A stretch of 52,630 bases of DNA from a virus (Duplodnaviria; Caudoviricetes), in IMG/VR virus record IMGVR_UViG_3300031111_000529, positions 1-52,630 of that record; one strand, 5' to 3'. Positions 68 through 51,052 of this stretch are shown piece by piece; position 1 is the stretch's first letter, and each line of letters starts with the position of its first letter. The notes beneath the pieces are model-generated. The model saw only the letters and a list, made by a program, of their open reading frames with translations, searched no databases and was not told the origin of the DNA. Position numbers and translations under genes: made by a program.

Positions 68-1426
68 TCAGATTGCCGGCAACGCCGCGACCGCCCCGGC
101 CGTGTCGGCGAGGTCGAGGTGGGTGTAGGTGTTCATCGTCAGGCGGATGTCGCTGTGTCGCATGAGCTTCTGAGCCACGCTGGGTGAGACACCGTTGCGG
201 GCCAGCAGCGTGGCGAAGGTGTGCCGCAGGCAATGAACGTCCACGGTTCGGCCCTGAGCGTCACGCTTGGGTATCCCTGCGGCTTTCAGGTCAAGATTGA
301 ACCCTCGTAGGAAGTTCCGCCCTGCGTTGAACAGCGGCATGTCCTGGATGGCTTGGCCGCCACTGGCCAGCCGGTCAACGTGCCTTCGCAGGTCGTCGGC
401 GAGGTCGCCTCGCAGAGGCAACGTCGCAGCCCGGCCACTCTTGGCGTGCTTGCCTTCGATGCAAACGTACGGGTTGGCCTCGTCAAGGCACAGCGCACCG
501 ACGGTAAGCGAAGCCACCTCCCCACGGCGAAGACCGGTGAGGATCATGAACTTGTAGGTCAGCGCCCGCTCCTGCCCGAGGCGTTCCAGACGCCTCCGCT
601 CCTTCTCGCTTACCTTGGCCAGCGGCTTGCCCTTGTTCTTGCCGCGACGAATGGTGAGGGCATCCTGTAGCGGCCGCTCCTGCGCCGCCTTGAGCAGCTT
701 GGCGATCTCGTCCTCCGTCAGCGGGCGACGTTTCCTCGCCGGCTCGGCTTCCTCAGCTTTGGGTAGCCCAGCCAGCGGATTGGCCGTCAACCGTCCCTCT
801 GCCACGCACCAGTTACAGAATGCCACGGTTGCCGCCCGGTGCATGTTGATGGTTCGGGCCGACAATGGCTGGGAATCAGGATCGCTCGGCTCGCGAGGCG
901 TCTGTGCCAGCTTCACCATCCATCGCTGGAGCGTCTGGCGGCCGATGTCCTTCAGCGTTCGGAAGGCACACTCACGAACGACCCGCTCCAGTTCCGTCCG
1001 CACGTGGCGGACGTGCTTCGGCGAGACGCGCCTGCCACGGATCGTCTTGACGGCCAGTTGGGCCAGATAGTCTTTGGTGTGCTTGCCGATGGGCGTTTCG
1101 AGTTGGCTGGCGGCCGCCATCTCGCCCTGACTCATGACGCCCGCCTTGACCTTCTCCACGTCGGCCAGAATGTCCGCGAGTACCTTCTCCGCGGCTCGCT
1201 TGTCGCGGCAGCCGGTCGATTGTCGCCGCATCTTGCCAGAGGCGTCACGGTACCGGACGTACCAGCAGTCTGAGACAAACTGGACGCGCCCATCGTCGAG
1301 CAATTCCGCCGTCCGCAACTGGCCCTTGCCGTTGGTCCAGCGAGCCAGCTTCTTACCTCGCTGGGTGATGATATCCGCCTCGTCGGGCATGGGGATCGGA
1401 TAGCTCTTCTTGTAGATTGTTGCCAT
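68..1426 (-). CDS. int: Tyrosine recombinase / phage integrase
   Basis: Catalytic motifs TGLRRGE (R), HAKSG (K), HCLRH (HxxR) and LMRHSDIRLTMNTYTH (H...Y); N-terminal arm-binding-like WYVRYRD segment. Confidence 0.96.
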   Translation of the reverse strand: MATIYKKSYPIPMPDEADIITQRGKKLARWTNGKGQLRTAELLDDGRVQFVSDCWYVRYRDASGKMRRQSTGCRDKRAAEKVLADILADVEKVKAGVMSQGEMAAASQLETPIGKHTKDYLAQLAVKTIRGRRVSPKHVRHVRTELERVVRECAFRTLKDIGRQTLQRWMVKLAQTPREPSDPDSQPLSARTINMHRAATVAFCNWCVAEGRLTANPLAGLPKAEEAEPARKRRPLTEDEIAKLLKAAQERPLQDALTIRRGKNKGKPLAKVSEKERRRLERLGQERALTYKFMILTGLRRGEVASLTVGALCLDEANPYVCIEGKHAKSGRAATLPLRGDLADDLRRHVDRLASGGQAIQDMPLFNAGRNFLRGFNLDLKAAGIPKRDAQGRTVDVHCLRHTFATLLARNGVSPSVAQKLMRHSDIRLTMNTYTHLDLADTAGAVAALPAI

Positions 1427-1492
1427 CTGCGCTCCATTCCGCAGGCATCGCCGGCCCTGCGTGACACACTGAGCGGTGGTTCCGCCCCGGCC

Positions 1493-1780
1493 TCAAGGGC
1501 TTTCTGGCACAGGTCTTGGAGAGTTCTGCGGGCCTGTTCTGGGCCGCACGTTGGCCACTGTCGGCACCGGACAGCCTTCGGCGATCCAGCGTTCGAGGAC
1601 CTCACGGGGCCAGCGGATCAGCCCGCCAATTCGAGCGGGTCGAGGAATGCGCCCTTTGTCCACCAGGCGGTAGACGGTCCTTGGCGAGCAGGCCAGCAGT
1701 GTGGCCACGCCGTCGACGGTGAGCATGATGGACTGGGCGGGAAGATTCTGATCGTTGGGACGAGTGTGCTGCTCTTGCAT
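1493..1780 (-). CDS. Excisionase / AlpA-like HTH protein
   Basis: MLTVDGVATLLACSPRTVYRLVDKGRIPRPARIGGLIRW is a typical HTH_17/AlpA signature; directly upstream of int; start taken at ATG 1780. Confidence 0.88.
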   Translation of the reverse strand: MQEQHTRPNDQNLPAQSIMLTVDGVATLLACSPRTVYRLVDKGRIPRPARIGGLIRWPREVLERWIAEGCPVPTVANVRPRTGPQNSPRPVPESP

Positions 1781-1901
1781 GGTGACAATCCTTCCGTGGC
1801 GATGACGAAGCTCGCAGAGGGCAGCCGATCGTCGCTCTTCGCCAACGGCCTTCGACCAGCGACCAGTGCGCTGTCCGGCAAGCATTCGGACGGACCAGTC
1901 T

Positions 1902-1940
1902 CTATTAGTTACTTACCCCGTGGGGGCCAAAAACGTCGGA
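1902..1940 (-). promoter_or_regulatory. Bipartite motif copy 1 (putative phage-sigma promoter of xis-int)
   Basis: Minus strand reads TCCGACG-tttttggccccca-CGGGGTAAGTAACTAATAG; same boxes and 13-nt spacer as at 13230 and 28069. Confidence 0.8.
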
Positions 1941-2111
1941 CCGGCGTCCGAGGTGGACGGAGTTGTTGGCCCAGAGAGGGCGGTCGCCAGCTCCCTTCGT
2001 GACCACGCCCATAGGTGCTCCGCAGATTCTCTTGTTGAGAAAACCTGGCAAATGCGGACAATATCGGGTTCAACCTCGCGGGGTGCACGTCCCAGGGCTG
2101 AGGAGTCTTGA

Positions 2112-2291
2112 ATGGCAGTGGGATTTGGCGACATCCTGACGCTGTACGACGTGGAGGAGTCCTCTGAGACTCCCTGGTCCACGCTCCACAAGCTGGCCCA
2201 GGAGAACAAGCCCTGCGGCCAGCGGCGCCGCTTCCACAAGGAAGCCATCGATCCATGGATGAAGGCCGGAGCGAGGAAGGTTCTGAGGTAG
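2112..2291 (+). CDS. Small, divergent HTH_17-family DNA-binding protein (59 aa, absent from ORF track; possibly decaying)
   Basis: GAGGAG RBS; translation MAVGFGDILTLYDVEESSETPWSTLHKLAQENKPCGQRRRFHKEAIDPWMKAGARKVLR resembles the consensus ILTxxEvaeyL..stlYkLaqeGkiPg.kvG..WRF.keaIDrW, with a deletion in the wing. Confidence 0.6.
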   Translation: MAVGFGDILTLYDVEESSETPWSTLHKLAQENKPCGQRRRFHKEAIDPWMKAGARKVLR

Positions 2292-2295
2292 AAGC

Positions 2296-5200
2296 ATGCC
2301 GAGCAGGACAAGCAAGAGCGGCAGTGAACTGTTCATTGTGGACAACAGTGATGCAGACTGGAAGGTCCAGCGTTACCTGCGCGATTGGTGCCAGATCTCG
2401 AAGCAGTTGGATGTCGCTACGGGCTATTTTGAGATCGGTTCTCTATTGTCGCTGGGGGATGCTTGGGAGAGGGTGGATCATGTTCGCATCCTGATGGGCG
2501 ACGAGGTATCTCTTCGCACGAAGCGTGCCTTCGAAGAAGGGCTGGCGCACGCCACCGGAACACTGGATGAGAGCATTGAGGCCGCCAAGGAAACCAATGA
2601 CTTTCTGGTCGGCGTGCCAGCCATCGTTGAAGGGATCCGTAGTGGCAAGATAGCCTGCCGCGTGTACCGTAAGGACAAGTTCCACGCTAAGGCCTACATC
2701 ACGCACGGCCGGCTGGACGTGGTCGGGGCCTCCGCCTTGGTTGGGTCATCAAACTTCACGCACCCCGGGCTGACGGAAAACCTTGAACTCAACGTTCAGA
2801 TCACCGGCAGTCCGGTGAGTGTCCTTCAGGAGTGGTACGAGGAGCACTGGAACAATGCGGAAGACGTGACGCCGGAGATCCTCAGGACTATCGAACGCCA
2901 CACGCGGGAGTATCCCCCCTTCGAGGTCTACGCGCGAAGTCTGCAGGAGTACTTCCGCAGCCACGAGCTGACGGCCGACGAATGGGAACGGCGTGACTCA
3001 AAGATGTACCCGGTCCTGGCCACGTACCAGCGACATGGGTACCACGGCTTGCTGAAGAGAGCCAGGAAGTACGGCGGCGCCTTCCTTTGCGACGGCGTGG
3101 GTTTGGGCAAGACCTACATCGGACTAATGGCCATCGAGCGCCTTGTCCTCCACGAGAAGAAACGCGTCGCGCTCTTCGTCCCGAAGGCCGCACGGGAAGC
3201 CGTCTGGGAAAGCAAGATCAAGAAACACCTGCCGGAGATTCTCGGCGGGTTCCTGAGCTTCCGCATCTACAACCATACGGACCTGCTCCGTACAAACAGG
3301 CAGATTCGCCTCGAACTGGAGCAGATGAAGGAACAGGCGGACGTGGTGATGATCGATGAGGCCCATCACTTCCGCAACACCGGCATTCGCGGTGAGGATG
3401 AAGGTGATCGCAGAAGCCGTTACTGGGAAATGTTCGACATCTGCGATGGCAAGCAGCTCTTCCTGCTTACCGCCACGCCCGTCAACAACCGCCTGACCGA
3501 CTTCCAGCACATGACCGAATTGTTCTCGCGCCGGAAGGCGGAGTACTTCGGCATTGCTCCCCTTGGCATCCACAGCCTGCCCGGCCATGTCCGCACGTTG
3601 GAGAAACAGATTGAGGCCGCTGCCAAAGGACGCGAAGAGGAACTGAGCGAAGGCACGGCAGCCCTTGAGGAAGACAACGCTGAAACAAACCTGGCGGAAG
3701 CCGAGCAGATCCTGCGCGATGACTCACTCTTCGAGGAACTCGTCGTCCAGCGCAGCCGGGCTTACGTCAAGCAGTCCCTCGCCGAAGAGGACGGCCAAGT
3801 GCTTTTCCCGCAGTCCTCACCCCCGAAGGTCGTCCCCTACTCCGTCAAGCAGACCTACGGCAAACTGCTGAAGATGGTGGAGGATGCCTTCCACCAAAAG
3901 AAGCCGCTGTTCTCGCTGGCAATGTACTACCCATGGGACTACTACACCGGCGAACGTGACTTAACCGAGCAAGACGCCGCCATGACCGTTGGCCGCCAGA
4001 AGCAAGTAGCCCGACTGATTCGCACATCCTTCCTCAAGCGATTTGAGAGTTCGGTCTTCGCTTTCAAGGCGTCGTGCGAAACATTGATGAAGAAGCTGAT
4101 CGCCTTCTACCAAGTTCATGCCGAGGATCGCCACGACAAGGATCGCCTGGACAAGTGGCTCGGCCGCAACAAGGACATTACAGGCTTCGACCCGCACAAG
4201 CAGCACACCCTCTTCCCCGACCAGAAGGATCTGGAACTTGAGGAAGAGGACGTTGTGGAGCCGGAGTATTTCGAGAAGGCGTACAAGGATCGGCTCAGCC
4301 CGGATGAGTTCAACATTCCCGGTCTCCTGGCTGATGCCCTAAATGACCTGAACACTATCGCCGATTTCCTCAAGGAACTGGCCCTATTCGAGCCAAAGCA
4401 GGACAAGAAACTCCAGGCGCTCATCCAGCTGCTTCGCGGGCATACGCCGGGGTTGAAAGACGTTGCTCTCCAGCGCCACAAGCTGCTGGTCTTCACCGAG
4501 TTCAAGGACACGGCCCGTTATCTCGCTGAGCAACTCATCGAGGCCGGGTTCGCCGACGTGGTCGAGATCGACTCCCGCACACACTCCAACGGCCGGCTGG
4601 CCGTGATCCGAGCATTTGCTCCTTACTACAACGACTCATCCAGCGCGGACCTGGCCGCCAAAGGCCTGGACGAGACGCGCATCCTGATCTCGACGGATGT
4701 CCTCTCAGAAGGCCTGAACCTCCAGGACGCCACGCGTCTGGTCAACTACGACCTGCACTGGAACCCCGTGCGGCTCATGCAGCGCATTGGCCGAATCGAC
4801 CGGCGGCTAGACCCCGCTGTCGAGGCCCAGATGATCGCTGACCGCCCGGAGATCGAGAAGTTCCGCGGCATGATCCAGTACTACAACTTCCTCCCGCCGG
4901 ACGAATTGAACGAGCTTCTCAGTCTCTACAAGACCGTCACCCACAAGACGCTTCGCATCTCCAAGACCTTCGGCATCGAGAACGGCAAGCTGCTCCGCCC
5001 GGACGATGATTACGATATCCTCCGCGACTTCGTACGCCAGTGCGAGGGAACCGAATCGCAGAGCGAGGGCCTCAGCCTGGAGTTCCAGAAGCTGCTCAAG
5101 GACAACCCCGACATCGAGGCCAGAATCAGCCAATTCCCCAACCGCGTCTTCGCCGGTAAGGAATCGCTCAGTCCCGACACCACAGGCGTCTTCTTCTGCT

Positions 5201-5490
5201 ACGCCCGCCCAGCCAAGGATATAGACAGCGACGACTGGACCATCGAAGCCGGAGACGTGAGGTGGTATCTCTACGACCTTGCCACGGAGAAGATCATCGA
5301 AGACCCATACGAGATCGTCCAGCACATCCGCTCCGGCCCGGACACTCCGCGCGTTTGCCGCATGGGACAAGACGATCTCATCGAGATCCGTAAGAAGATG
5401 GACAAGTACATCAAGAACAGCTACCTCAAAAAGGTCCAGGCTCCAATCGGCGTGAAGCCGGTCCTCCGCACCTGGATGGAGCTAGCCTAG
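2296..5490 (+). CDS. PLD-family nuclease fused to SNF2-type SF2 helicase (restriction subunit-like)
   Basis: FHAKAY...GSSNFT...NLELN (PLD HxK motif); DGVGLGKT (Walker A), IDEAHHFRN, TATP, SEGLNLQ, QRIGRIDR (helicase motifs). Confidence 0.9.
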   Translation: MPSRTSKSGSELFIVDNSDADWKVQRYLRDWCQISKQLDVATGYFEIGSLLSLGDAWERVDHVRILMGDEVSLRTKRAFEEGLAHATGTLDESIEAAKETNDFLVGVPAIVEGIRSGKIACRVYRKDKFHAKAYITHGRLDVVGASALVGSSNFTHPGLTENLELNVQITGSPVSVLQEWYEEHWNNAEDVTPEILRTIERHTREYPPFEVYARSLQEYFRSHELTADEWERRDSKMYPVLATYQRHGYHGLLKRARKYGGAFLCDGVGLGKTYIGLMAIERLVLHEKKRVALFVPKAAREAVWESKIKKHLPEILGGFLSFRIYNHTDLLRTNRQIRLELEQMKEQADVVMIDEAHHFRNTGIRGEDEGDRRSRYWEMFDICDGKQLFLLTATPVNNRLTDFQHMTELFSRRKAEYFGIAPLGIHSLPGHVRTLEKQIEAAAKGREEELSEGTAALEEDNAETNLAEAEQILRDDSLFEELVVQRSRAYVKQSLAEEDGQVLFPQSSPPKVVPYSVKQTYGKLLKMVEDAFHQKKPLFSLAMYYPWDYYTGERDLTEQDAAMTVGRQKQVARLIRTSFLKRFESSVFAFKASCETLMKKLIAFYQVHAEDRHDKDRLDKWLGRNKDITGFDPHKQHTLFPDQKDLELEEEDVVEPEYFEKAYKDRLSPDEFNIPGLLADALNDLNTIADFLKELALFEPKQDKKLQALIQLLRGHTPGLKDVALQRHKLLVFTEFKDTARYLAEQLIEAGFADVVEIDSRTHSNGRLAVIRAFAPYYNDSSSADLAAKGLDETRILISTDVLSEGLNLQDATRLVNYDLHWNPVRLMQRIGRIDRRLDPAVEAQMIADRPEIEKFRGMIQYYNFLPPDELNELLSLYKTVTHKTLRISKTFGIENGKLLRPDDDYDILRDFVRQCEGTESQSEGLSLEFQKLLKDNPDIEARISQFPNRVFAGKESLSPDTTGVFFCYARPAKDIDSDDWTIEAGDVRWYLYDLATEKIIEDPYEIVQHIRSGPDTPRVCRMGQDDLIEIRKKMDKYIKNSYLKKVQAPIGVKPVLRTWMELA

Positions 5491-5508
5491 GGACAAGGGG
5501 TGTGATCA

Positions 5509-8500
5509 ATGTCTGAAGAGATTCGAGAGCAGCTGCAGGCCATCAAGACGTTCCCTTCGCTGGTCAAGTACCTCCGAGATGAACTCGACTGGCCCATCGA
5601 AGCCGATGACTTCGATGACCTGACCTTTGACTACGAGCCCGAAGAACTGGGCATCGATGCCAAGACGGCCGCGAAGATCGAGTACGTCAAACAGCTCCGC
5701 CCCCTTGAGGACGGCCAGCCCTGGGGCATCTTCTTCGTCAAGTTCGAGCCCAAGCGGCTCCCCGTCGTCGCCATGCGCCGCATCCTCCGCGGCCTAGCTG
5801 TCAAGAAGCGTGCCTCCGCCAACCGGGCCGACAGGGCTGCCTGGGCCAGGACCGACCTGCTGTTTATCTCAGCCTACGGCGAGAACGAGCAACGTCACAT
5901 CAACTTCGCCCACTTCCACGAGAGTCCACAGAACGGCGACCTGCCCGTCCTGCGCGTTCTTGGCTGGGATGGCTCGGACACCGCCCTGCACATCGACCAC
6001 GTCCACGAGACGCTCACGAGCAGGCTGCGCTGGCCAGATGACGTTCTGGATGCCAATGCTTGGCGGGAGACCTGGGCCGGCGCCTTTACCCTTAAACACC
6101 GCGAGGTCATCACCACCAGCAAGCAGATGGCCATTCGTCTGGCCGACCTTGCCCGGCAGATCCGCAAGAAGATCAACTCCATCCTGGCCATCGAGAAACA
6201 AAGCGGTCCCATGCATAAACTCATGGCTGCCTTCAAGGAAGCCCTCATTCACGACCTGTCAGAAGATGACTTCGCCGATACTTTTGCTCAGACCATTAGC
6301 TATGGGCTTCTGATCGCAGGCATGTCTCGTACCGTCAACGGTGAAGGCACGGCTGTGATCGCGACCGATATTGTCGAGATGGTTCCCAGAACGAACCCCT
6401 TTCTCCGCGAAATGCTTGCGACATTCCTAACCGTCGGGGGGCGTAGAGGCAGGCTGGACTTCGATGAACTGGGCATCAGTGACGTCGTCGATGTTCTTCG
6501 CAGCCCGGATACGCACATGGAGGCCGTCAAACGCGACGTTGGCGACGCAAATGTACGAGAAGATCCTGCCCTCTATTTCTACGAGCTGTTCCTGAAAGAA
6601 TACGACGCTAAGAAGCGCATGCAGCGCGGCGTCTTCTACACCCCCCGGCCGGTCGTATCCTACATCGTCCGCTCCGTCCACGAGCTGCTCCAGACCGAGT
6701 TCGGCTTGGAAGACGGCCTTGCCGACACGACTACCTGGGGGGAGATGGTCGAGAGATGTCCCGACCTCAAGCTGCCGACCATCAAGGTCAAGAAGCCCGA
6801 CTTGCCTGACCTGGTGAATGAGCCCATTGATCCCTCCACCCCGTTTATCCAGATACTCGACCCGGCCACCGGCACCGGCACCTTCCTTGTCGAGGTCATC
6901 GACGTCGTCCACAAGACGATGAAGCAGAAGTGGCTCGATGGTGGCCACTTGCCTCTGCAGATTCCCGAACTGTGGAACGACTACGTGCCCGAGCACCTTC
7001 TGCCACGTCTGTACGGCTACGAACTCATGATGGCCCCATATGCCATCGCCCACATGAAGATCGGCCTGAAGCTCTTCGAGACCGGCTACCGCTTCGGAAC
7101 CGACGAGCGGGCCCGCATCTATCTCACCAACGCACTCGAGCCCGCGCAGGACTTCTCAGACACGTTCGAGCAGATGGCCCCCGCCCTAGCCCACGAAGCC
7201 CAGGCCGTCAACGACGTCAAGCGGCATCATCGCTTCACCGTAGTGATCGGGAATCCACCGTATTCCGCGCTATCCGCCAATCTGACCGAACAGGCGCGTC
7301 GACTCGTGACACGGTTTAAGTACATTGATGGCATCAAACTCCACGAACGCGGCGCGTTGCAGTTGGAGAAGAATCTTCAGGATGACTATGTCAAGTTCTT
7401 GGCCATTACCGAAGATCACTTGAGCGAAAGCGGGATTGGCGCTTGCGGCATCATCTGCAATCACGGTTTCATCGACAATCCCACTCTACGAGGTCTACGC
7501 TGGTCGCTGTTGGACCGTTTCAGCAACCAGTGGGTCCTGGATCTGCACGGCAATGTCAATCGCCGCGAAGTCGCGCCGGACGGCTCGCCCGATCAGAATA
7601 TCTTCGACATCAAGGACGCGGGGGTAGCAATCTTCCTCGCCACACGCGGCCAGCGCACATGTTCTGCGGACGCTGGACTGCGCCAAGCGGACCTCTGGGG
7701 GGGAGACCGTGTGACGCAGAAATACCCATTTCTGTCGACGGAGTCAGCCGCGACAACGCCGTGGGAATCGGTCTCGACCGGCCCCGAGCTGTACCTGTTC
7801 TGCAACATCGGTGGCCCCGACGCGGAAGAATACGCGGCTTGGCCTAAGGCTACGGAGGTCTTTCCGCTGCACAGTATCGGCATGATTACGGCGCGGGACG
7901 CGTACGTCATTGACTTCGAGCCGGGGCTGGTCTTAGAGCGGGCGAAGGCCTTCCGCGGCTCAACTTTGGATGACGAGGCGACGTGCCAGGCGCTGGGCAT
8001 TCCGTTAAAGAAAGGCTGGAACATTGCTCGGGCGCGCCAGCGGATTCAGCAAGTGACGAACCTGGCATCCTGCGTTCACCCGCTGCTGTACCGTCCGTTC
8101 GACATCCGGCCTGTGTTCTATCACGAATCGCTGATCTGGGGCATGGCCTGGCCAGTGATGCAGCACATGCTCGAAGGGCAGAACTTGGCCCTGATCACAT
8201 CGCGGATGACGAAGGGGGAGGACTTCCAGCATGTGTTGGTTAGCCGGGGTCTTTCCGAGGTGATTCTGCTTTCGTCGAAGACCTCCAACAACGCCTTCGT
8301 TTTCCCGTTGTACTTACGCAATCAGGAGGACATGCTTCATGCTGGCGGCACGACGAACATCAGCACGGAGTATACCCGAAGCATCTCGCAGGTCATCGGT
8401 GGCGCTGCACCTCCTCAAGCGATCTTTCAGTACATCTATGCCGTGCTGCACAGTCTAACGTACCGTAAGCGGTACGTGCATCTGCTGAAGCGCGACTTTC

Positions 8501-8991
8501 CGCGCATCCCGGTTCCAGCGACTGCGCATGTCTTCGACGGCCTGGCCGAATTGGGCGGGGAACTGGTTCCTCTGCACCTTCTGGAGTCCCCGCTGCTGGA
8601 CAAGCCGATTACCGCCTACACCGGCCCGGCAAATCCGGAGGTGGAGAAGGTCAGCTACAGCGACGAAACCGTCTGGCTGGACAGGGCCAAGACCCGTGGC
8701 TTTGAGGGCGTGCCGGAAGACGTCTGGAACTTCCACATCGGCGGGTACCAAGTCTGCCACAAGTGGCTCAAGGATCGCCAGGCCAAGGGCGGCAGGAACC
8801 CACGCCCCGGCCGCGTACTCAAGAAAGACGACGTCGAGCACTACCGCAAGATCGTCACGGCCCTCCACCACACCATCCGCCTCATGGGCGAGATCGACGA
8901 AGTCATCGAGCAGCACGGCGGCTGGCCCGACGCCTTCATCACTGACCCAAAGGTCTTGGAAGGCCTGAAATCAAGAGATGGGAAGCCATAG
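5509..8991 (+). CDS. N6-adenine DNA methyltransferase with C-terminal target-recognition domain (Type ISP/IIG-like)
   Basis: GVFYTP, ILDPATGTGTF (SAM binding), VIGNPPY (catalytic); C-terminal YRPFD, YIYAVLHS.YR.RY...DFPRIP and IGGYQVCHKWLKDR as in Type ISP specificity domains. Confidence 0.92.
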   Translation: MSEEIREQLQAIKTFPSLVKYLRDELDWPIEADDFDDLTFDYEPEELGIDAKTAAKIEYVKQLRPLEDGQPWGIFFVKFEPKRLPVVAMRRILRGLAVKKRASANRADRAAWARTDLLFISAYGENEQRHINFAHFHESPQNGDLPVLRVLGWDGSDTALHIDHVHETLTSRLRWPDDVLDANAWRETWAGAFTLKHREVITTSKQMAIRLADLARQIRKKINSILAIEKQSGPMHKLMAAFKEALIHDLSEDDFADTFAQTISYGLLIAGMSRTVNGEGTAVIATDIVEMVPRTNPFLREMLATFLTVGGRRGRLDFDELGISDVVDVLRSPDTHMEAVKRDVGDANVREDPALYFYELFLKEYDAKKRMQRGVFYTPRPVVSYIVRSVHELLQTEFGLEDGLADTTTWGEMVERCPDLKLPTIKVKKPDLPDLVNEPIDPSTPFIQILDPATGTGTFLVEVIDVVHKTMKQKWLDGGHLPLQIPELWNDYVPEHLLPRLYGYELMMAPYAIAHMKIGLKLFETGYRFGTDERARIYLTNALEPAQDFSDTFEQMAPALAHEAQAVNDVKRHHRFTVVIGNPPYSALSANLTEQARRLVTRFKYIDGIKLHERGALQLEKNLQDDYVKFLAITEDHLSESGIGACGIICNHGFIDNPTLRGLRWSLLDRFSNQWVLDLHGNVNRREVAPDGSPDQNIFDIKDAGVAIFLATRGQRTCSADAGLRQADLWGGDRVTQKYPFLSTESAATTPWESVSTGPELYLFCNIGGPDAEEYAAWPKATEVFPLHSIGMITARDAYVIDFEPGLVLERAKAFRGSTLDDEATCQALGIPLKKGWNIARARQRIQQVTNLASCVHPLLYRPFDIRPVFYHESLIWGMAWPVMQHMLEGQNLALITSRMTKGEDFQHVLVSRGLSEVILLSSKTSNNAFVFPLYLRNQEDMLHAGGTTNISTEYTRSISQVIGGAAPPQAIFQYIYAVLHSLTYRKRYVHLLKRDFPRIPVPATAHVFDGLAELGGELVPLHLLESPLLDKPITAYTGPANPEVEKVSYSDETVWLDRAKTRGFEGVPEDVWNFHIGGYQVCHKWLKDRQAKGGRNPRPGRVLKKDDVEHYRKIVTALHHTIRLMGEIDEVIEQHGGWPDAFITDPKVLEGLKSRDGKP

Positions 8992-9027
8992 TCGCCTCTC
9001 ATCTGGAGCGACAGCCCACTAAGCCGC

Positions 9028-9387
9028 ATGGGAACACTTACCATAGACAATCAGGACGGCCTTCACTTGCGGACCAATGCTCCTGCTGAGCAGGCCCAAC
9101 GTTATGCGGCTGCGTTCCGCCAGGTATGGCAGACGATTCACCCAAATGACCGGCAGAGAGCCAAGGGCCACTGGCTCGGCAATAGCCCCACCGGACATCG
9201 AGCTGAGCGACCTGTGGCAACACAACGAGCGGGCTGGGCAACGGTATATTCTGGACCTGCTATTGAGCGTAACCAATCTGAGCGTTCAGACAATGGATAC
9301 CGTGGACAGCCTGCCGACGCTGGACCTCTCCGCGGGGGCGGAGAGATGATCCGAAACAGAAGCATGGAGTTGCCAGCGAAGGAGTAA
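9028..9387 (+). pseudogene. Hypothetical ORF, possibly frameshifted remnant
   Basis: Protein-like N-terminus (MGTLTIDNQDGLHLRTNAP...FRQVWQTIHP) seems to continue in the overlapping frame (PPDIELSDLWQH) after a C-run near 9186; no recognisable family. Confidence 0.3.
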
Positions 9388-9392
9388 TCCTC

Positions 9393-10169
9393 ATGGGCCA
9401 CAACCGACTTCATGTAATCGCGCAGACGCGGCTTTGGCGCGAGGTGGTCGGCACGCTGGAAGACCACGACAGTGGGATGGCCGATGTTGCGTCGGCGACG
9501 GCGACGGCCGCGCAGACCGGCCTTCAACGGGCCAAGGGGGACGAAGGGCTTTCGTACGCATTCTGGCTTCTCTGCCAGATTCCGCTGGCCGCCAAGAAGG
9601 CCGACTTCGGCAAGGGCCTTCGCGGGCTGGGGCTGGACGTCCCCGACGCGCCTTCGACGTTCGACGTAGCCGCCGGTTTCACTGAGGCCGTCGAGTCCCA
9701 CCTTCGCCGGACCCGAGGCCGGACAGACATAGGTGAAATCGCCCAACTGGCCGCTGCCGAGTGCCTGACCGCCACGGCGACGCAGGCGCTGAAGGGCCTG
9801 TTCAGTTCAGAGGCCGAGAACGTCCAGAACACCTTCGGGGGGCAGGCGACGCAGAAGAACTTCGGCTTCTTCGCCCAGGACTTCTTCGCACGGTTTGCGA
9901 GCCGCTTCCTGGCATACCACCTCAGCCGGGAGCTTTCGAACCATGTCGGCGAAGGTCGTCGGTTTGCGAACATATCCGAGCATGAGCAGTTCAAGGAAGC
10001 GATGGAGCTTCATTGCCGCCAGACCGCCCGCATTGTGCGGGAGTATGCCGGGACCTGGCATTCGAAGACAAGCTATGAATCGGGAATCACGCCCCGGAAG
10101 GCCAAGCGATTCGTCGCCCATGCGATGACCAAGCTGAGCGATGAGCTTTCGCGAAGGGAGGGGCGATGA
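9393..10169 (+). CDS. Alpha-helical partner of the QueC-like enzyme (QatB-analogous; N-terminus Met-Gly-His)
   Basis: AAGGAG RBS; 258 aa, Ala-rich and helical; stop overlaps the QueC start (ATGA). QatB analogy is inferred from position, size and Gly2. Confidence 0.75.
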   Translation: MGHNRLHVIAQTRLWREVVGTLEDHDSGMADVASATATAAQTGLQRAKGDEGLSYAFWLLCQIPLAAKKADFGKGLRGLGLDVPDAPSTFDVAAGFTEAVESHLRRTRGRTDIGEIAQLAAAECLTATATQALKGLFSSEAENVQNTFGGQATQKNFGFFAQDFFARFASRFLAYHLSRELSNHVGEGRRFANISEHEQFKEAMELHCRQTARIVREYAGTWHSKTSYESGITPRKAKRFVAHAMTKLSDELSRREGR

Positions 10170-11866
10170 AGCACGAACGCCTAATCCTTTGCGGCGGCGC
10201 ATCGGCCCCCCGAGGCGTGCGGGCTGAACGGCTTCACCTGGACCTTTGGGGCCGCGACCCGAACGTATTCCTGAAGATTCGCAATATCACCGACGCCGTG
10301 GCCAAGAACCCCCCGCCAGTCCTGCTGGACTTGCTGGACGTGGCCGCCTACCTGTACGCCGGCGATCAATGCGTTCCGCGCGGGGGGACGGCCAGCTTCG
10401 ACTACGGCGACCGATGGGACCGCCGATTGCGCTACGTGATTCCGCTTCGAAGGCCCAAGGTATGGCAACGCGCCAGAGTCAAAGAAGCCCTGGCCGACGT
10501 TCTCGGCTGGATGACCGATGACCAGTTTGAGTTCCGTTTTCCGCAACTGAAGAATCCCCCGAAGCTGCCGAGTTACCTTGAGTTCGACAAGGACACGGCG
10601 AACCCCACGGGCATTGAGGAAGTCTGCATGTTCTCGGGCGGGTTGGATTCGCTGGCGGGCGCGGTCAAAGAAGCCGTGGTGGACGGCCGGAAAGTTGCGC
10701 TGGTTGGCCACTGCCCCGCCCCGCAACTGCACAAGCGGCAGGACCAGCTTCTTGAGGCCCTGGCCGCAAAGTGCAAGCCGGCCAAGCGGCCGTTCTTTGT
10801 CCAAGTATGGGCAAACAAGGCTTCCAGCTTGACCAAAGACACGTCGCAGCGCATCAGGTCCTTCCTGTTCGCTTCGCTGGGCGCGGTGATTGCCGGCATG
10901 ATGAAGCTGAATCGCGTTCGGTTCTACGAGAACGGCCCGGTTTCGCTGAACCTTCCCCTTTGCGAACAGCTTGTTGGGGCGCGGGTCACGCGGACGACGC
11001 ACCCGAAGACGCTAGCCGGGATGAGTAAGCTGCTCAGCCTGTTGCTAGGAACCGACTTCGCGGTGGACAACCCGTTCCTGTGGAAGACGCGAACCGACAC
11101 TGTGCTTGACCTGAAAGCCGCGAAGGCCGAAGACCTGCTCCCCTACACCGTCAGTTGCAGCCATACGCGGGGAATGACAACGGGCTACCCGCATTGCGGT
11201 TGCTGTTCGCAGTGCATAGACAGGCGCTTCGCCGTCTTGGCCGCCGATTGTGGACAACACGACCCCGCCGATTCCTACCAACTGGACGTGCTCACCGACG
11301 GGCGAGACAAGACCGAAGACCGCACCATGCTGGAACGCTACTTGGGCTTCGCGGCCAAGGTCGAAGCCGTTAAGGACGAGAACACCTTCTTCACTGAGTT
11401 CCCCGAAGCCTATCGCACAATCAACGCCATGGACGGGGACCGGCGGGAATCGGCCAAACAGGTCATCGCACTGTGCAAACGACACGGGGAGCAGGTCAAC
11501 GGCGTTGTCGACCGCGCCTTGGCCGATGCGGCTGCAAGTGGAGCATTGCGGCGCGGGGAACTGCCAGGCAATTGTGCGCTCCTGCTGGTGGGAAGCAGGC
11601 ACTCGACCCCCGCGCCTACGACCGAAGCCACTGGGCAGGATAGTGCATCGCCTGCCGAACAGGATACCGACCGCCCACGCTGCGCGCCAATGACACGAAC
11701 CGAGATAGCCCGCCGGCTGCTAAACCGAACAGACGCCCGCGTTCGTCAAGCTGAAGGCATGATGAAGCGCCTTGGCTTGCGGCAGGAAGACGGCAAGTTC
11801 TACACGATCCTGGTTGACCAACTGGATCCTGCGACGAGGACACGCCTTCTGAAGCCAGCTTCTTGA
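10166..11866 (+). CDS. QueC/QatC-like PP-loop ATP pyrophosphatase with C-terminal linker and HTH-like extension
   Basis: FSGGLDS PP-loop; RSFLF, ENG and TRTTHP motifs; Zn cluster SCSH...HCGCCSQCIDRR; QatC-like N-terminal extension (DLLDVAAYLYAGDQ); tail MTRTEIARRLLN... Confidence 0.88.
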   Translation: MKHERLILCGGASAPRGVRAERLHLDLWGRDPNVFLKIRNITDAVAKNPPPVLLDLLDVAAYLYAGDQCVPRGGTASFDYGDRWDRRLRYVIPLRRPKVWQRARVKEALADVLGWMTDDQFEFRFPQLKNPPKLPSYLEFDKDTANPTGIEEVCMFSGGLDSLAGAVKEAVVDGRKVALVGHCPAPQLHKRQDQLLEALAAKCKPAKRPFFVQVWANKASSLTKDTSQRIRSFLFASLGAVIAGMMKLNRVRFYENGPVSLNLPLCEQLVGARVTRTTHPKTLAGMSKLLSLLLGTDFAVDNPFLWKTRTDTVLDLKAAKAEDLLPYTVSCSHTRGMTTGYPHCGCCSQCIDRRFAVLAADCGQHDPADSYQLDVLTDGRDKTEDRTMLERYLGFAAKVEAVKDENTFFTEFPEAYRTINAMDGDRRESAKQVIALCKRHGEQVNGVVDRALADAAASGALRRGELPGNCALLLVGSRHSTPAPTTEATGQDSASPAEQDTDRPRCAPMTRTEIARRLLNRTDARVRQAEGMMKRLGLRQEDGKFYTILVDQLDPATRTRLLKPAS

Positions 11867-11875
11867 CGCAGTTCC

Positions 11876-11946
11876 TTACGGCCATTTCCGACCATTTCCG
11901 ACCATCCCCGCCAGTTACGACCATCCCCGCCACCACCCCATTCCGG
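11876..11946 (+). repeat. Phased ~10-bp direct repeats RCCATYYCCG (putative activator binding sites)
   Basis: GCCATTTCCG/ACCATTTCCG/ACCATCCCCG at 11881/11891/11901, ACCATCCCCG at 11920, CCATTCCG at 11938; followed by -10-like CATACT at 11962. Confidence 0.75.
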
Positions 11947-12038
11947 ACCTTGTCTGCGCACCATACTGTGGACCGTAGGACGCGGCAGGCAACGGACGCC
12001 TACGCGATTTCAACGGCGACGGACATGGAGCAGTGCTT

Positions 12039-12443
12039 ATGCAGCAAGTCAGGAGAAACGCCACCGACGGGCGTAACGTCGGCGGGGAATCGGCCCCCGC
12101 GCAACTGGCCGAAATGCCCAACGTGCAAGGGAAGGCCGACCTCATCCCTGCAGAGGCGCGGCTGGTAGAGATGATGCAGCGGATCAACTACGGCCGCATC
12201 CTGGGGCTATCGGTGCGCCACGGCGAGCCAGTGATGGACCCGCCGCCGCGCATCTTCCATGAGTACAAGTTTCCCGGTGATAACGGGGCGCGCCCCGAAG
12301 CCACCAAGGTCGACTTTGCCCTCAAGGCCCAGGTCCGCGACCTCTTCGCCCAACTGGAGGCGATGGGTAATGGAGTCGTTCGGTCCATCGAGATTCAGCG
12401 CGGTCTTCCGTTTCGGATGACCGTCGAGGAGGAGGCCGCCTAA
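12039..12443 (+). CDS. Small conserved hypothetical protein with two helix-beta-beta half repeats (DUF2292/YezD-like by resemblance)
   Basis: GGAG RBS before ATG 12039; halves LVEMMQRINYGRILGLSVRHGEP and LFAQLEAMGNGVVRSIEIQRGLP resemble each other. Confidence 0.65.
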   Translation: MQQVRRNATDGRNVGGESAPAQLAEMPNVQGKADLIPAEARLVEMMQRINYGRILGLSVRHGEPVMDPPPRIFHEYKFPGDNGARPEATKVDFALKAQVRDLFAQLEAMGNGVVRSIEIQRGLPFRMTVEEEAA

Positions 12444-12494
12444 GCACCGGGGTCCGGCTCCCCACATGACATGTGATCCAAACGAATTGAGTAC

Positions 12495-12629
12495 CTGACA
12501 ACTAACCGGCCACGAAGTGGAGGCGTTGTGGGTGCCGCAGAAGCGGCAGTCCTGCAACGCCTCCCGTTCTATAGGTCGCAGCTTCGGTTGGCACCCACGC
12601 GACGCCTTCCCGGCCAAAGGAAGGCACAA
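12495..12629 (+). promoter_or_regulatory. Structured RNA leader/attenuator of the sigma gene
   Basis: Long hairpin 12519-12564; RBS-sequestering hairpin GCCTTCC/GGAAGGC 12604-12625; alternative pairing of 12519-12536 with 12590-12610. Confidence 0.65.
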
Positions 12630-13226
12630 ATGGACGCCAACAAGAAGCAGCACGGAATCAATGACTATGCAGAGAATCTCATCCACCACAAGGCACGTCA
12701 GCTCGTCGGCACTGCCGGCTTCACCAGGGACGACGTCGAGGATCTGGAGCAGGAGATGAGGCTTGACCTGCTGCAACGCCTGCCGAACTTCGACCCGAGC
12801 AAGGCGACCTACAACACGTTCGTATCACGTCTCATCGAACGGAAAATCAGCAATCTCATCCGCCATCGAACCCAGGAGCTGCGCGACCACCGGTGTGAGG
12901 ACGGGTCGATACATGATCCGATCCCATCCAGCCATGGCGGCGATACTGAGGTCGAGCGCATCGAGACCGTCACTCAGGACGAGCAGGATTTCCGGTTGGG
13001 CAAACACACCCGCAGCGCTGAGGAGCGTCGCGACCTGAAGCTGGACATCTCGCTGGCCTTGGAAAAGCTTCCGGCAGACCTACGGGAACTGGCGGAAATC
13101 CTGCAGGCCATGTCGATCACCGAAGCGGCCTGCGAATTGGGCATCCCGCGCAGCACGCTCTATGAGCGGATCGCCAAGCTGCGCCGGGCATTAGAGGCCA
13201 TGGGTCTAAACGGCCAGTTTCGATGA
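12630..13226 (+). CDS. ECF-like sigma-70 family RNA polymerase sigma factor
   Basis: Region 2 DDVEDLEQE...FDPSKATYNTFVSRLIERKISNLIR; region 4 LEKLP...MSITEAACELGIPRSTLYERIAKLR; GGAAGG RBS before ATG 12630. Confidence 0.9.
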   Translation: MDANKKQHGINDYAENLIHHKARQLVGTAGFTRDDVEDLEQEMRLDLLQRLPNFDPSKATYNTFVSRLIERKISNLIRHRTQELRDHRCEDGSIHDPIPSSHGGDTEVERIETVTQDEQDFRLGKHTRSAEERRDLKLDISLALEKLPADLRELAEILQAMSITEAACELGIPRSTLYERIAKLRRALEAMGLNGQFR

Positions 13227-13229
13227 ATC

Positions 13230-13268
13230 TCCGACGTATTTCCCCTGCGCGGGGTAAGTAACTAATAG
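13230..13268 (+). promoter_or_regulatory. Bipartite motif copy 2 (putative phage-sigma promoter of the replication operon)
   Basis: TCCGACG-tatttcccctgcg-CGGGGTAAGTAACTAATAG, starting just after the sigma stop codon. Confidence 0.8.
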
Positions 13269-13435
13269 GCGACCAGGATCGAACTCAAGGAGACAAGAGT
13301 GATCGATGTGTTGTGAGCATACCACGCCCGGGCGGCTTGCGGCGGGTCCACCACACGCGACGGCCGCTCGCCCGGGCGTTTCCCATGCGACGGAACAGTC
13401 AGATAAACGTGAACACCAAGCATAAGGAAGACGCG

Positions 13436-14224
13436 ATGACATTACTGAAACAGATCCGAAGTGGCCCGCGCCACTCACCACCCCGGTTGCTGCTCTACGG
13501 CACCGAGGGCATCGGCAAGTCCACCACAGCATCGCAGGCTCCCAAGGCAATATTCGTCCCTACCGAGGACGGCCTCGACCAGATCGACTGCGATAGCTTC
13601 CCCCTCGCCAGGCGGTTCGACGAGGTCATGTCGGCCGTCTCGGCGCTGTACTCGGAACAGCACGATTACCAAAGCGTGGTGATCGACAGCCTGGATTGGC
13701 TGGAGCGGCTGATTTGGGACGAAGTCTGCCGTGAGTACGGCGTAAAGAGCATCGAGAAGGCCGACGGCGGATACGCCAAGGGTTACACCCATGCCCTGAC
13801 CCAGTGGAGAGAGGTGCTGGATGGCCTGGATGCGCTCCGCAACGAGCGCGGTATGGCCGTCATCCTGCTGGCCCACGCCAAGGTCGAGAAGTTCGAGGAT
13901 CCCGAGTCGGCCGCTTACGACCGCTATTCTCCCCGCCTGCACAAGCATGCGGCCGCCCTGGTGACGGAGTGGTGCGACGGTGTGCTGTTCGCCACGCGGA
14001 AGTTCCGCACCGAAAGCGAGGACGCAGGCTTCAATCGCACACGCTCCATAGCCGTCCCGCTCGGGGCCGACGGTGGTGAGCGCATCCTCCGCACCATCGG
14101 TGGACCGTCGTGCATCGCCAAGAACCGCTACTCCCTGCCGTCCGAGCTGCCCCTGTCGTGGCAGGCCCTCATGGCGGCAATGACCGAAGCCAACACCGAG
14201 ACCCAGGAGAACACCAATGGCTGA
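13436..14224 (+). CDS. AAA_24 / Sak4-like recombination ATPase
   Basis: LLYGTEGIGKST (Walker A), VVIDSLDWLE (Walker B), AKNRY; AAGGAAG RBS. Confidence 0.88.
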   Translation: MTLLKQIRSGPRHSPPRLLLYGTEGIGKSTTASQAPKAIFVPTEDGLDQIDCDSFPLARRFDEVMSAVSALYSEQHDYQSVVIDSLDWLERLIWDEVCREYGVKSIEKADGGYAKGYTHALTQWREVLDGLDALRNERGMAVILLAHAKVEKFEDPESAAYDRYSPRLHKHAAALVTEWCDGVLFATRKFRTESEDAGFNRTRSIAVPLGADGGERILRTIGGPSCIAKNRYSLPSELPLSWQALMAAMTEANTETQENTNG

Positions 14225-21127: not shown

Positions 21128-22474
21128 ATGACGACAAAGACGTTCGACGTAGAGCTTCGCAAGATCGACGACATCCGCCCGTATGAGCGGAACCCACGCG
21201 TCAATGACCAAGCCGTGGACGCCGTGGCGGCCAGCCTGAAGGAGTTCGGCTTCCGCCAGCCGATCGTGGTGGACACCAATGGCGTGATCCTCGCCGGCCA
21301 CACAAGATGGAAGGCCGCGAGGAAGCTCGGGCTTGCCAAGGTGCCGGTCCACGTCGCCACGGATCTGACACCTGAGCAGATCAAGGCGTACAGGATCGCA
21401 GATAACCAGACCGCGACGCTGGCCGAGTGGGACTTCGACCTGCTGCCAATCGAGCTGAAGGACCTGCAGGGCGTGGACTACGATCTGAATCTGCTCGGCT
21501 TCGACGGGGACGAACTGGCCCATCTGCTCGACGGCGATCTGGCCGAGGGCCTGACCGACCCAGACCAGATTCCTGAGCCGCCCGACGAGGCCATCACCAA
21601 GCCGGGCGACCTGTGGATTCTGGGCGAGCACCGGCTGTTGTGTGGCGACAGCGGCAACGAGGTCGACCTCGACCGCCTGCTGGACGGGGCGACCATCGAT
21701 CTTCTGGCGTGCGATCCGCCGTATAACGTGAAGGTCGAACCGCGTAGCAGCACGGCCATCGCCGCCGGACTCAGTTCCCACCCCGACCTTTCGAAGCCTT
21801 CTGGAAAAATGCACCACCAGAGCTTTGACGTTGCACGCGGTGTGACCGACCCGAAAAAGGCCCGCAAGAAGATGCGTGCTAAGGACCGACCGCTGGAGAA
21901 CGACTTCCTCAGCGACGAGGCGTTCGACGAGATGCTCATGGCGTGGTTTGGCAATGCCTCGCGCGTGCTCAAGCCTGGTGGGTCGTTCTACATCTGGGGC
22001 GGGTATGCCAACCTCGGCAACTACCCCGCGCCGCTGAAGGCCGCCGGGCTGTACTTTTCACAGGGAATCGTCTGGGACAAGCAGCACCCGGTTCTAACGC
22101 GCAAGGACTTCATGGGCGCTTTCGAGATCTGTTTCTACGGATGGAAGGAGGGCGCGGGCCATAAGTTCTTCGGCCCCAACAACGCTACGGACTTGTGGCA
22201 CGTCAAGAAGGTCAACCCACAGTCGATGGTGCACTTGACGGAGAAGCCCGTCGAGTTGGCCGTGCGCTCGGTTCAGTATTCCAGCCGTCCCGGAGAGAAC
22301 GTCCTAGATCTGTTCGGCGGATCGGGCTCGACGCTCATCGGGTGCGAGCAGACGAACCGCAAGGCATTCCTGATGGAACTCGACGCGTTGTACTGCGATG
22401 TGATCGTGCAGCGATGGGAGGAGTTCACGGGCAGGAAGGCAGAGCGAGTGAAGCAAGAGCAGGCAGTTACCTGA
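21128..22474 (+). CDS. ParB/Srx N-terminal domain fused to N4/N6 DNA methyltransferase
   Basis: RNPR..D.AV..VAASLKEFGFRQPIVVD...AGHTR (ParB); DPPYNV, HLTEKP and LDLFGGSGST (beta-class MTase). Confidence 0.93.
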   Translation: MTTKTFDVELRKIDDIRPYERNPRVNDQAVDAVAASLKEFGFRQPIVVDTNGVILAGHTRWKAARKLGLAKVPVHVATDLTPEQIKAYRIADNQTATLAEWDFDLLPIELKDLQGVDYDLNLLGFDGDELAHLLDGDLAEGLTDPDQIPEPPDEAITKPGDLWILGEHRLLCGDSGNEVDLDRLLDGATIDLLACDPPYNVKVEPRSSTAIAAGLSSHPDLSKPSGKMHHQSFDVARGVTDPKKARKKMRAKDRPLENDFLSDEAFDEMLMAWFGNASRVLKPGGSFYIWGGYANLGNYPAPLKAAGLYFSQGIVWDKQHPVLTRKDFMGAFEICFYGWKEGAGHKFFGPNNATDLWHVKKVNPQSMVHLTEKPVELAVRSVQYSSRPGENVLDLFGGSGSTLIGCEQTNRKAFLMELDALYCDVIVQRWEEFTGRKAERVKQEQAVT

Positions 22475-50836: not shown

Positions 50837-51052
50837 TTCGTAGCCCTTTCGTGCCAACAGCCGCCCTGACCAGTGGCGTAGCGACGCCCACCGGCAATCA
50901 GGAACAGTATCCCCTGGTAGAGGCGCACCCACTCCCCAGGCCACATCACGTCGGACAGGTAGAATGCTGTGGGAAACAGATAGGATCGGCCCTCAGTCTG
51001 GACTTCCCGGCTGAGGCCCCAACTCCCACGCTGTAAGACACATGTGAAAAGC

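Follow-up and report, generated by a model that had tools for sequence, protein, structure and literature searches.

The sigma factor gene of a provirus in IMG/VR (record IMGVR_UViG_3300031111_000529, a complete provirus record whose 52,630 bases are referred to here as the window) is preceded by an mRNA leader in which one strand has three alternative partners. We consider it reasonably probable that this leader (12494–12632, 139 nt) is a cis-acting, multi-state element in which the hub strand, A, is shared between a 5' tail (T), a near arm (B), and a far arm (C), and in which pairing of A with C opens translation of the sigma gene. Comparison of homologous leaders indicates that the three mutually exclusive pairings of A are selected features of the RNA, that the ribosome-binding site (RBS) is buried in the ground state and pairs with the far arm whenever that arm is free of the hub, and that the partners of A become available in the order tail, near arm, and far arm. 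Judged from sequence and predicted folding, the leader most probably controls the timing of sigma synthesis.

A small gene, a leader of approximately 190 nucleotides (nt), and the sigma gene together form a module that recurs in phage and metagenome contigs, and its members supply the sequences used for the tests of structure. The sigma start codon was placed in 144 of 156 leader matches, with the other 12, mostly on cut contigs, being dropped, and the 144 leaders represent 110 distinct sequences, which were aligned with MAFFT without structural information (alignment A6, referred to as unfitted). Fitted alignments were derived from two covariance models, R1 for state 1, in which A pairs with B (A5, 97 representatives), and R2 for state 2, in which A pairs with C (A9, 99 representatives). 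The models searched 99 of the 198 sources, after removal of leaders within two edits and a few further near-duplicates; A5 was made at a stricter threshold that excludes minus-strand hairpin matches, and L085 and L086 were also lost.

A preliminary description of this DNA had proposed a two-state switch in the leader, and all of the sequence elements that it named are present. Its long hairpin (H1, 12519–12564) consists of ten perfect basal pairs, a TGGG/CCTG segment with two wobbles, a 2-nt bulge, and six apical pairs around an AGAA loop, and its small hairpin, CCAC-GAA-GTGG at 12510–20 (P0), overlaps the 5' arm of H1 by two G residues. The RBS is buried as it had suggested, with GCCTTCC (12604–10) pairing to GGAAGGC (12619–25), and of the checks it had called for, folding returns state 1 exactly as the minimum-energy fold of 12495–12645, and covariation among the 110 distinct leaders backs states 1 and 2 each with compensatory changes. 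Two details needed adjustment. The sigma start codon is ATG 12630–12632, rather than at position 12632, and since it begins at 12630 the GGAAGG box ahead of it ends 5 nt before the ATG and not 4. The larger amendment is to the scheme itself, in which both pairings stand but which is incomplete, with strand A having at least three partners, the 5' tail at 12494–12502 having been missed.

State 1 is the ground state by energy and is well conserved. The fold of 12495–12645 has an energy of -72.3 kcal/mol, compared with -51.2 +/- 3.7 kcal/mol for 200 shuffles of the same sequence (z -5.66), none of which was as good. In the unfitted alignment 94.7% of the lower part and 88.7% of the apical part of H1 is paired, rising to 98.6% and 93.1% in the fitted alignment, where 11 of 18 pairs show double-sided changes. 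The RBS hairpin is 83.8% paired in the fitted alignment, with all seven pairs changed on both sides, and in 95 of the 110 leaders the minimum-energy fold pairs every position of the Shine-Dalgarno box, whose mean unpaired probability is 0.047. Strand A is invariant in the 30 closest leaders, and there are 24 arm haplotypes among the 110, which covary with each partner. The fold of 12495–12645 also contains a base stem between the 5' GGCC(AC) and the linker G(T)GGTC; this candidate was rejected, being 87.8% and 57.8% paired, with no double-sided change in the four-pair GGCC:GGTC helix.

State 2 is built from the distal strand C, of which one part (C1) pairs with A and a second part (C2), which in state 1 pairs with the RBS, also pairs with A. 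The first pairing had been described as perfect, and 12528–36 is the exact reverse complement of 12590–98; the second (12519–26 with 12602–10) is also present, with one bulged T. A:C1 is 96.9% paired in the unfitted alignment, with double-sided changes in four of nine pairs, the replacements being UA to CG in 14 sequences, CG to AU in 16, CG to UA in six, and GC to AU in two; in the fitted alignment it is 97.3% paired and six of nine pairs are changed on both sides. When the partner is slid by one to three columns the whole tested state-2 structure is 34–59% paired. When every pair of A6 columns was scanned blind, A:C1 furthermore ranked first among the helices, with 11 consecutive pairs that are 96.5% canonical. 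The same scan also gave a 4-bp helix between 12588–91 and 12610–13.

The third partner is the 5' tail, which resembles strand B. The T:A helix is 93.9% paired in the unfitted alignment, with double-sided changes in four of eight pairs, and is part of a 39-nt 5' hairpin composed of T:A, two CC:GG pairs (12506–7 with 12522–3), and P0. The hairpin as a whole is 96.4% paired in the unfitted alignment and has seven of 14 pairs changed on both sides, compared with 32–64% pairing in slid controls. Within it, P0 is 99.5% paired in the fitted alignment, its third pair is AU in 78 sequences and becomes GC in 18, and its loop sequence is variable. The first 45 nt of the leader alone fold as the T:A hairpin at -15.0 kcal/mol (14 of 200 shuffles are as good), and the first 77 nt fold into H1 instead, at -38.9 kcal/mol. 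Because one strand (12525–32) is common to T:A, A:B, and A:C, the three pairings are mutually exclusive.

Several controls bear on whether these patterns reflect pairing of RNA. Switches between Watson-Crick pair types were counted as minima on a FastTree tree built from the sigma proteins and hence from none of the leader columns, skipping rows with G-U or mismatches; at least nine switches are needed across three pairs of A:C1, 12 across four pairs of the tail helix, six in P0, and ten across three pairs of H1. With one representative for each of the 24 arm types, cognate A:C arms pair at -29.1 kcal/mol and foreign arms at -24.9 kcal/mol, the corresponding values for A:B are -26.5 and -23.1 kcal/mol, and in neither case was any of 2000 permutations as good. 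Cells that depart from Watson-Crick pairing are more often G-U than A-C, with 54 against 8 in A:C1 and 316 against 21 in H1, and this excess argues for RNA pairing on the plus strand and against repeated DNA operator sites.

Lesser pairings may extend state 2. The 5' GGCC could find a partner in the GGCC of the RBS-hairpin loop, an interaction predicted by both RNAalifold and constrained folds, and 96.6% pairable, with a double-sided change in one sequence only (L091); we regard it as tentative. Equally tentative is a state-2 pairing of the middle element with 12540–47, for which 12540–47 and 12578–85 are 73.3% paired, compared with 35–57% in slid controls. We also note that the self-complementary GGCC/GGTC motif occurs three times, once each in the 5' tail (12508–11), the linker (12574–77), and the RBS-hairpin loop (12612–15). 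Any two of these could pair, and the loop GGCC could mediate RNA dimers.

The energetics do not distinguish the arms themselves, as the bare duplexes in the window are about equal (-33.5 kcal/mol for A:B and -34.3 kcal/mol for A:C). Opening of the Shine-Dalgarno box accompanies A:C pairing in the predicted folds, with its mean unpaired probability increasing from 0.047 to 0.35 when A:C1 is forced, and to 0.45 when A:C is forced as a whole. Several observations nonetheless count against a leader that opens through A:C. Relative to the minimum-energy fold, forcing A:C1 costs a mean of 8.5 kcal/mol (range 0 to 32; from -64.2 to -58.2 kcal/mol in the window) and forcing all of A:C costs a mean of 9.5 kcal/mol, such that state 2 is on average 8.5–9.5 kcal/mol less stable than the ground state and help or a kinetic route would therefore be needed. 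The box is at least half paired in 83 of the 110 A:C-forced minimum-energy folds, mostly with the 5' tail, so that 'on' may be only partial, and strand B, which carries CCTCC and is freed in state 2, could re-bury the box through a pseudoknot of a kind unscorable here. A:C2 is 81% paired in both alignments, a figure attributable to variation in the number of C residues before the GGCC loop, which shifts the alignment register; examined sequence by sequence, a duplex of at least 7 bp is found in 18 of the 24 distinct arm types. Among public sequencing runs, the stretch is listed for two DNA runs and for no RNA run. The shuffle controls are uncorrected for relatedness between leaders, and recombination between leader and sigma gene could inflate the tree counts. 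The predicted folds thus describe a state 2 that is more open at the Shine-Dalgarno box, although not demonstrably open.

A plausible sequence of events can be outlined for the hub-strand leader. T and P0 would form the 5' hairpin once the first 45 nt exist, and newly made strand B would then displace T to give the very stable H1. Strand C, left free, would pair with the Shine-Dalgarno box, and sigma translation would therefore be blocked in what is the ground state. Pairing of A with the distal C, in a long-range duplex about as strong as A:B, would release the box for ribosomes, and A:C would accordingly constitute the 'on' state of a switch that sets the amount or timing of sigma synthesis. 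The tail may delay or modulate capture of the hub by B, giving C a chance, with the outcome set by kinetic partition or by a further factor. A stronger version, which we advance as a speculative suggestion with perhaps a modest chance of being right, is that the leader is a self-contained RNA timer of a novel kind, in which the hub strand is handed from the 5' tail to the near arm and then to the far arm, the exchange being seeded at the GGCC motifs.

Two alternatives deserve the most attention, both of which we consider unlikely. In the first, H1 and its T-rich linker act as an intrinsic terminator of the small-gene transcript with T:A as the antiterminator, so that the sigma gene is controlled by read-through; this could coexist with translational control. 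The layout is that of a classical antiterminator, with T:A using the 5' arm of H1 and forming first (in the 45-nt piece, compared with H1 in the 77-nt piece), and the 10 nt following H1 are T-rich, with a T fraction of 0.39 compared with 0.175 overall. For the attenuator that the preliminary description had offered as an option, however, the T-run is inconsistent: a run of at least five T in eight is present in 40 of the 110 leaders (at least six in 18) and is lacking in the 70 others, including the window with four T in eight, and 12 leaders have one T or fewer. A consensus scan did not flag H1 as terminator-like. Attenuation also leaves the A–C covariation unexplained, as A and C must lie on one transcript, as well as the conserved burial of the RBS. 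A terminator role for H1 is weakly supported, and possible in a subset of leaders.

In the second, with a comparably low probability, the small protein encoded upstream binds the leader (for example at the 5' hairpin) and tips the balance towards the open state, as Com does for mom in phage Mu. The small gene, leader, and sigma gene are strictly syntenic in the fetched loci, with the small gene directly 5' of the leader at every locus where it was found, and the ground state would need approximately 9 kcal/mol of help to open. There is also precedent for a small phage protein opening a translation-inhibiting structure next to its own gene (PMC6483171). The protein itself offers little encouragement. 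Searches of Pfam-A (at E≤0.01) and of PHROG assigned it to no family, and although AlphaFold2 predicts its last 100 residues at a pLDDT of 84, the fold has no match in the PDB at E≤0.001 (best E 0.71), leaving it without an RNA-binding family or fold in these searches; a protein atlas returned unnamed viral clusters only. Its conserved domain is approximately neutral (median isoelectric point 6.1 and net charge -1 among 115 sequences), which is unusual for an RNA binder, and the unpaired nucleotides of the 5' hairpin are poorly conserved. A function alongside the sigma protein, or in transcription, would account for the synteny just as well; a predicted complex of the small protein with sigma scored 0.00, which in a prediction run without controls is evidence neither way. 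The preliminary description had suggested this protein as the trigger, and that part of its proposal finds no support beyond the strict synteny, whereas a translational switch is supported insofar as the exclusive pairings are kept and the RBS is buried in the stable state.

A metabolite or ion riboswitch, in which one fold is an aptamer and a ligand chooses between states, is considerably less probable. Mutually exclusive conserved helices such as those sharing 12525–32 are typical of expression platforms, sequence conservation is very high, and the lack of a match to any known family would make this a new class. However, the pairings account for nearly all conserved positions, with the rest lying in the GGCC motifs, and the P0 loop, the loop and bulge of H1, and a TAA junction all vary among the 110 leaders, and no unpaired pocket is conserved; this variability of the unpaired positions makes a small-molecule ligand unlikely. 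The element is also found in phage genomes 5' of a regulator and not of a metabolic gene. Least probable is the absence of any RNA switch, with repeated DNA operator sites (one inverted) or a static fold having A:C complementarity as a by-product: T, B, and C are alike with A their complement, as in arrays of binding sites, and the minimum-energy fold holds state 1 only, but the G-U excess in both helices is unexpected for DNA sites, double-sided changes keep pairing and not identity among T, B, and C, and A:C1 is the best-supported helix in the blind scan with at least nine independent compensatory events.

The hub-strand leader is widespread. A search with the sigma protein led to three loci, one of them in a Brocadiaceae metagenome-assembled genome, and in the two loci nearer to the window the leader is near-identical in nucleotides, with proteins that are only 57–78% identical. 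An exact 20-mer of the leader is present in 34 IMG/VR contig stretches, in the same context in 32. In L033 (3538–3557) and L037 (10306–10325), which are near-identical viral contigs, an exact 20-base leader match lies inside an unrelated G+C-rich coding region, and is probably there by chance. A search with an alignment of the small protein found relatives encoded on 163 viral and 314 metagenome stretches, of which 80 of each were fetched, and a total of 162 fetched loci carry the small gene (L001, L002, and L038–L197). The leader was found by nhmmer in 188 of 197 loci, counting duplicates of the same contigs; the nine misses are three unrelated or distant loci (L003, L033, and L037), four visibly homologous but diverged leaders, and two cuts by contig ends, inside the leader in L150 and 34 nt past the stop codon in L182. 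Among the 162 small-gene loci, nhmmer matched the leader in 156, and the remaining six comprise five diverged or end-cut leaders and one locus whose contig ends 34 nt past the stop codon. In 160 of the 162, a leader homologue was either matched or recognised by reading the sequence. Of 151 genomes sampled from the phylum of the Brocadiaceae genome, five gave a match to a covariance model built on the leader.

The leader is recognisable at loci with sigma proteins as little as 21% identical to that of the window, and its first 47 nt are invariant among the 30 closest leaders; across the fetched phage and metagenome loci it is more tightly conserved than either adjacent protein. Some loci depart from the usual arrangement. 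L145 (1157–1235) retains the tail and both the small and the long hairpin, followed by unrelated sequence in place of the 3' half, with no sigma start found, and L146 (1735–1813) gives the same partial match, from which a similar 5'-half-only state is deduced; these may be natural half leaders. One 83,416-base IMG/VR contig (entries L061/L062, and also L013/L027) has two small gene–leader–sigma modules exactly 50,000 bases apart with slightly different leaders, and may represent two related genomes joined as a concatemer or else a chimaera produced in assembly. At L003 (2940–3000), on an A+T-rich phage contig, a distant sigma relative (30% identity) lacks a recognisable tail or long hairpin upstream, and its start codon is preceded by a hairpin with a TTCGG-type loop and TTTCGCC/GGCGAAA flanks, which may be a simpler relative of the 3' half of the leader.

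Other readings of the conserved region were considered and rejected. An attP site or tRNA fragment in the invariant 5' part is disfavoured in that no tRNA or tmRNA genes were found in the window and the sigma start codon invariably follows directly on the element. A conserved leader peptide is likewise disfavoured, since the short ATG frames 5' of 12494 differ from locus to locus, and an ECF-type promoter (a GGAAC-like box before the tail) is at odds with a spacing to the conserved tail that varies from 0 to 6 nt between loci. No sigma-70-like promoter was found in 11700–13500, and no promoter is assigned. A permissive Rfam 15 scan of 11500–13800 (up to E=5) gave nothing on the leader, with the weak matches (E 0.32–1.8) at 13334–77, 13674–741, and 13067–126 all lying off it. 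We found no earlier description of the leader in the literature, although it may be among the 8,495 candidate RNAs, all without names, that have been catalogued from IMG/VR (PMC10690425).

Several known systems invite comparison. Phage Mu com-mom is similar in having a small gene directly upstream, start signals of the next gene locked in a stem, and a separate hairpin just 5' of that stem (PMC6483171). It differs in that the stem here would be opened by a distant strand of the same RNA, and in that three pairings compete here as opposed to the one inhibitory stem in mom; the small protein is also not a Com zinc finger, as no Pfam family matched. The lambda cIII mRNA exists in an equilibrium between two structures. 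Its leader has alternative conformations, and binding of RNase III relieves a translation-inhibitory structure, so that in both cases the leader of a phage regulatory gene takes an inhibitory or a permissive conformation (PMC2777011). There is no sequence or family relation, however, and the leader here, of approximately 140 nt, is situated entirely 5' of the start codon and is organised around a three-partner hub. In Escherichia coli rpoS, the RBS of a sigma mRNA is sequestered by a leader segment 5' of it and becomes free once small RNAs, with Hfq, offer that segment another partner. Here, in contrast, the competitor is not a small RNA acting in trans with Hfq but strand A in cis, which is itself competed for, and the leader has no Rfam match to any such leader.

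Classical attenuators and riboswitch platforms, such as the trp leader with its 1:2, 2:3, and 3:4 pairings, use overlapping exclusive helices in transcription order, with the earliest pre-empting the later. In this leader a single strand has segments 1, 3, and 4 as its partners, forming a hub and not a chain, and there is no conserved leader peptide, no aptamer pocket, and an inconsistent T-run. In the MS2 maturation gene and hok mRNA, translation occurs only in a transient or alternative fold and the equilibrium fold buries the RBS by long-range pairing, whereas the long-range pairing here is predicted to open the RBS and not to close it. With no Rfam match, Com-like protein, leader peptide, or consistent terminator, the leader is a member of none of these systems.

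The coordinates of the leader components and of neighbouring genes are collected in Table 1. The sigma protein matches Sigma70_r2 in Pfam (E 3e-7, 30.6 bits against a cut-off of 24) and, below the 25.7-bit cut-off, Sigma70_r4_2 (E 1e-3, 19.1 bits); several helix-turn-helix models match its C-terminal helix-turn-helix, and it matches PHROG 1740, RNA polymerase sigma factor, at E 1.5e-18. From left to right, the window contains the integrase, a restriction/defence-like block, the 134-residue small gene, a 186-nt spacer, and the sigma gene, and to the right of these are replication and recombination genes (AAA_24, DUF669, RusA, helicase, and primase) and the terminase. Within 71–11866, the four genes between the integrase and the small gene look like a defence or DNA-modification island of the provirus. 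Within the spacer, the GGGG-N7-CCCC element begins 6 nt past the TAA stop codon of the small gene (12441–43) and has a conserved GGCT in its loop; it holds another CTCCCC, resembling the RBS-complementary sequence. Elsewhere, 21128–22474 encodes a DNA methyltransferase fused to a ParB-like nuclease domain (PHROG 498, E 3e-131), and 44117–50944 on the minus strand encodes a 2,275-residue protein built of Ig-like, cadherin-like, and CARDB repeats, which may be a tail fibre or adhesin.

Table 1. Leader components and genes of the window (positions in the 52,630-base record; aa, amino acids; ORF, open reading frame).
Feature	Positions	Strand	Basis or remark
Integrase	71–1426	minus	
PLD-nuclease/SNF2-helicase fusion	2296–5490		between integrase and small gene
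Type ISP-like methylase with specificity domain	5509–8991		
258-aa gene, no function given			between ISP-like methylase and QueC-like gene
QueC-like protein, 566 aa	10166–11866		
Small protein gene, 134 aa from ATG 12039	12039–12443	+	ORF list; automatic start GTG 12033
GGGG-N7-CCCC element	12449–12463	+	near-invariant columns, alignment A1 (30 leaders)
5' tail T (CCTGACAAC)	12494–12502	+	pairs with 12525–12532, G12497 bulged
5' GGCC	12508–12511	+	could pair with loop GGCC 12612–15, extending state-2 helix
Small hairpin P0 (CCAC-GAA-GTGG)	12510–12520	+	caps 5' hairpin
Hub strand A, 5' arm of H1	12519–12538	+	three alternative partners T, B, and C
Strand B, 3' arm of H1 (state 1)	12543–12564	+	minimum-energy fold, covariation
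Linker after H1	12565–12577	+	T-rich in family
Middle element GCAGCTTCGGTT	12578–12589	+	possible state-2 pairing with 12540–47
Strand C, distal partner of A	12590–12610	+	C1 12590–98 with 12528–36; C2 12602–10 with 12519–26
RBS-burying hairpin	12604–12625	+	fold, covariation; GGCC at 12612–15 in conserved loop
Sigma factor gene, 198 aa, ECF-like	12630–13226	+	Pfam, PHROG

The leader represents a new and widespread family, and its layout, a hub with three partners, is unusual. The comparative support for one strand having three mutually exclusive pairings is uncommonly clear. Besides being a candidate new family for RNA databases, the leader offers a compact and testable model for multi-state RNA folding and a possible part for synthetic translation control. 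To our knowledge, almost nothing is known of gene regulation or phage biology in Planctomycetota, the host phylum. Phage sigma factors reprogramme the host polymerase, and whatever gates their synthesis therefore sets the timing of infection. Were the leader indeed an RNA timer, the fraction or lifetime of translatable sigma mRNA would be set by the folding pathway, or by one phage or host factor at the hand-over, and the leader would then serve a large group of Planctomycetota phages as the principal clock for the onset of middle or late expression.

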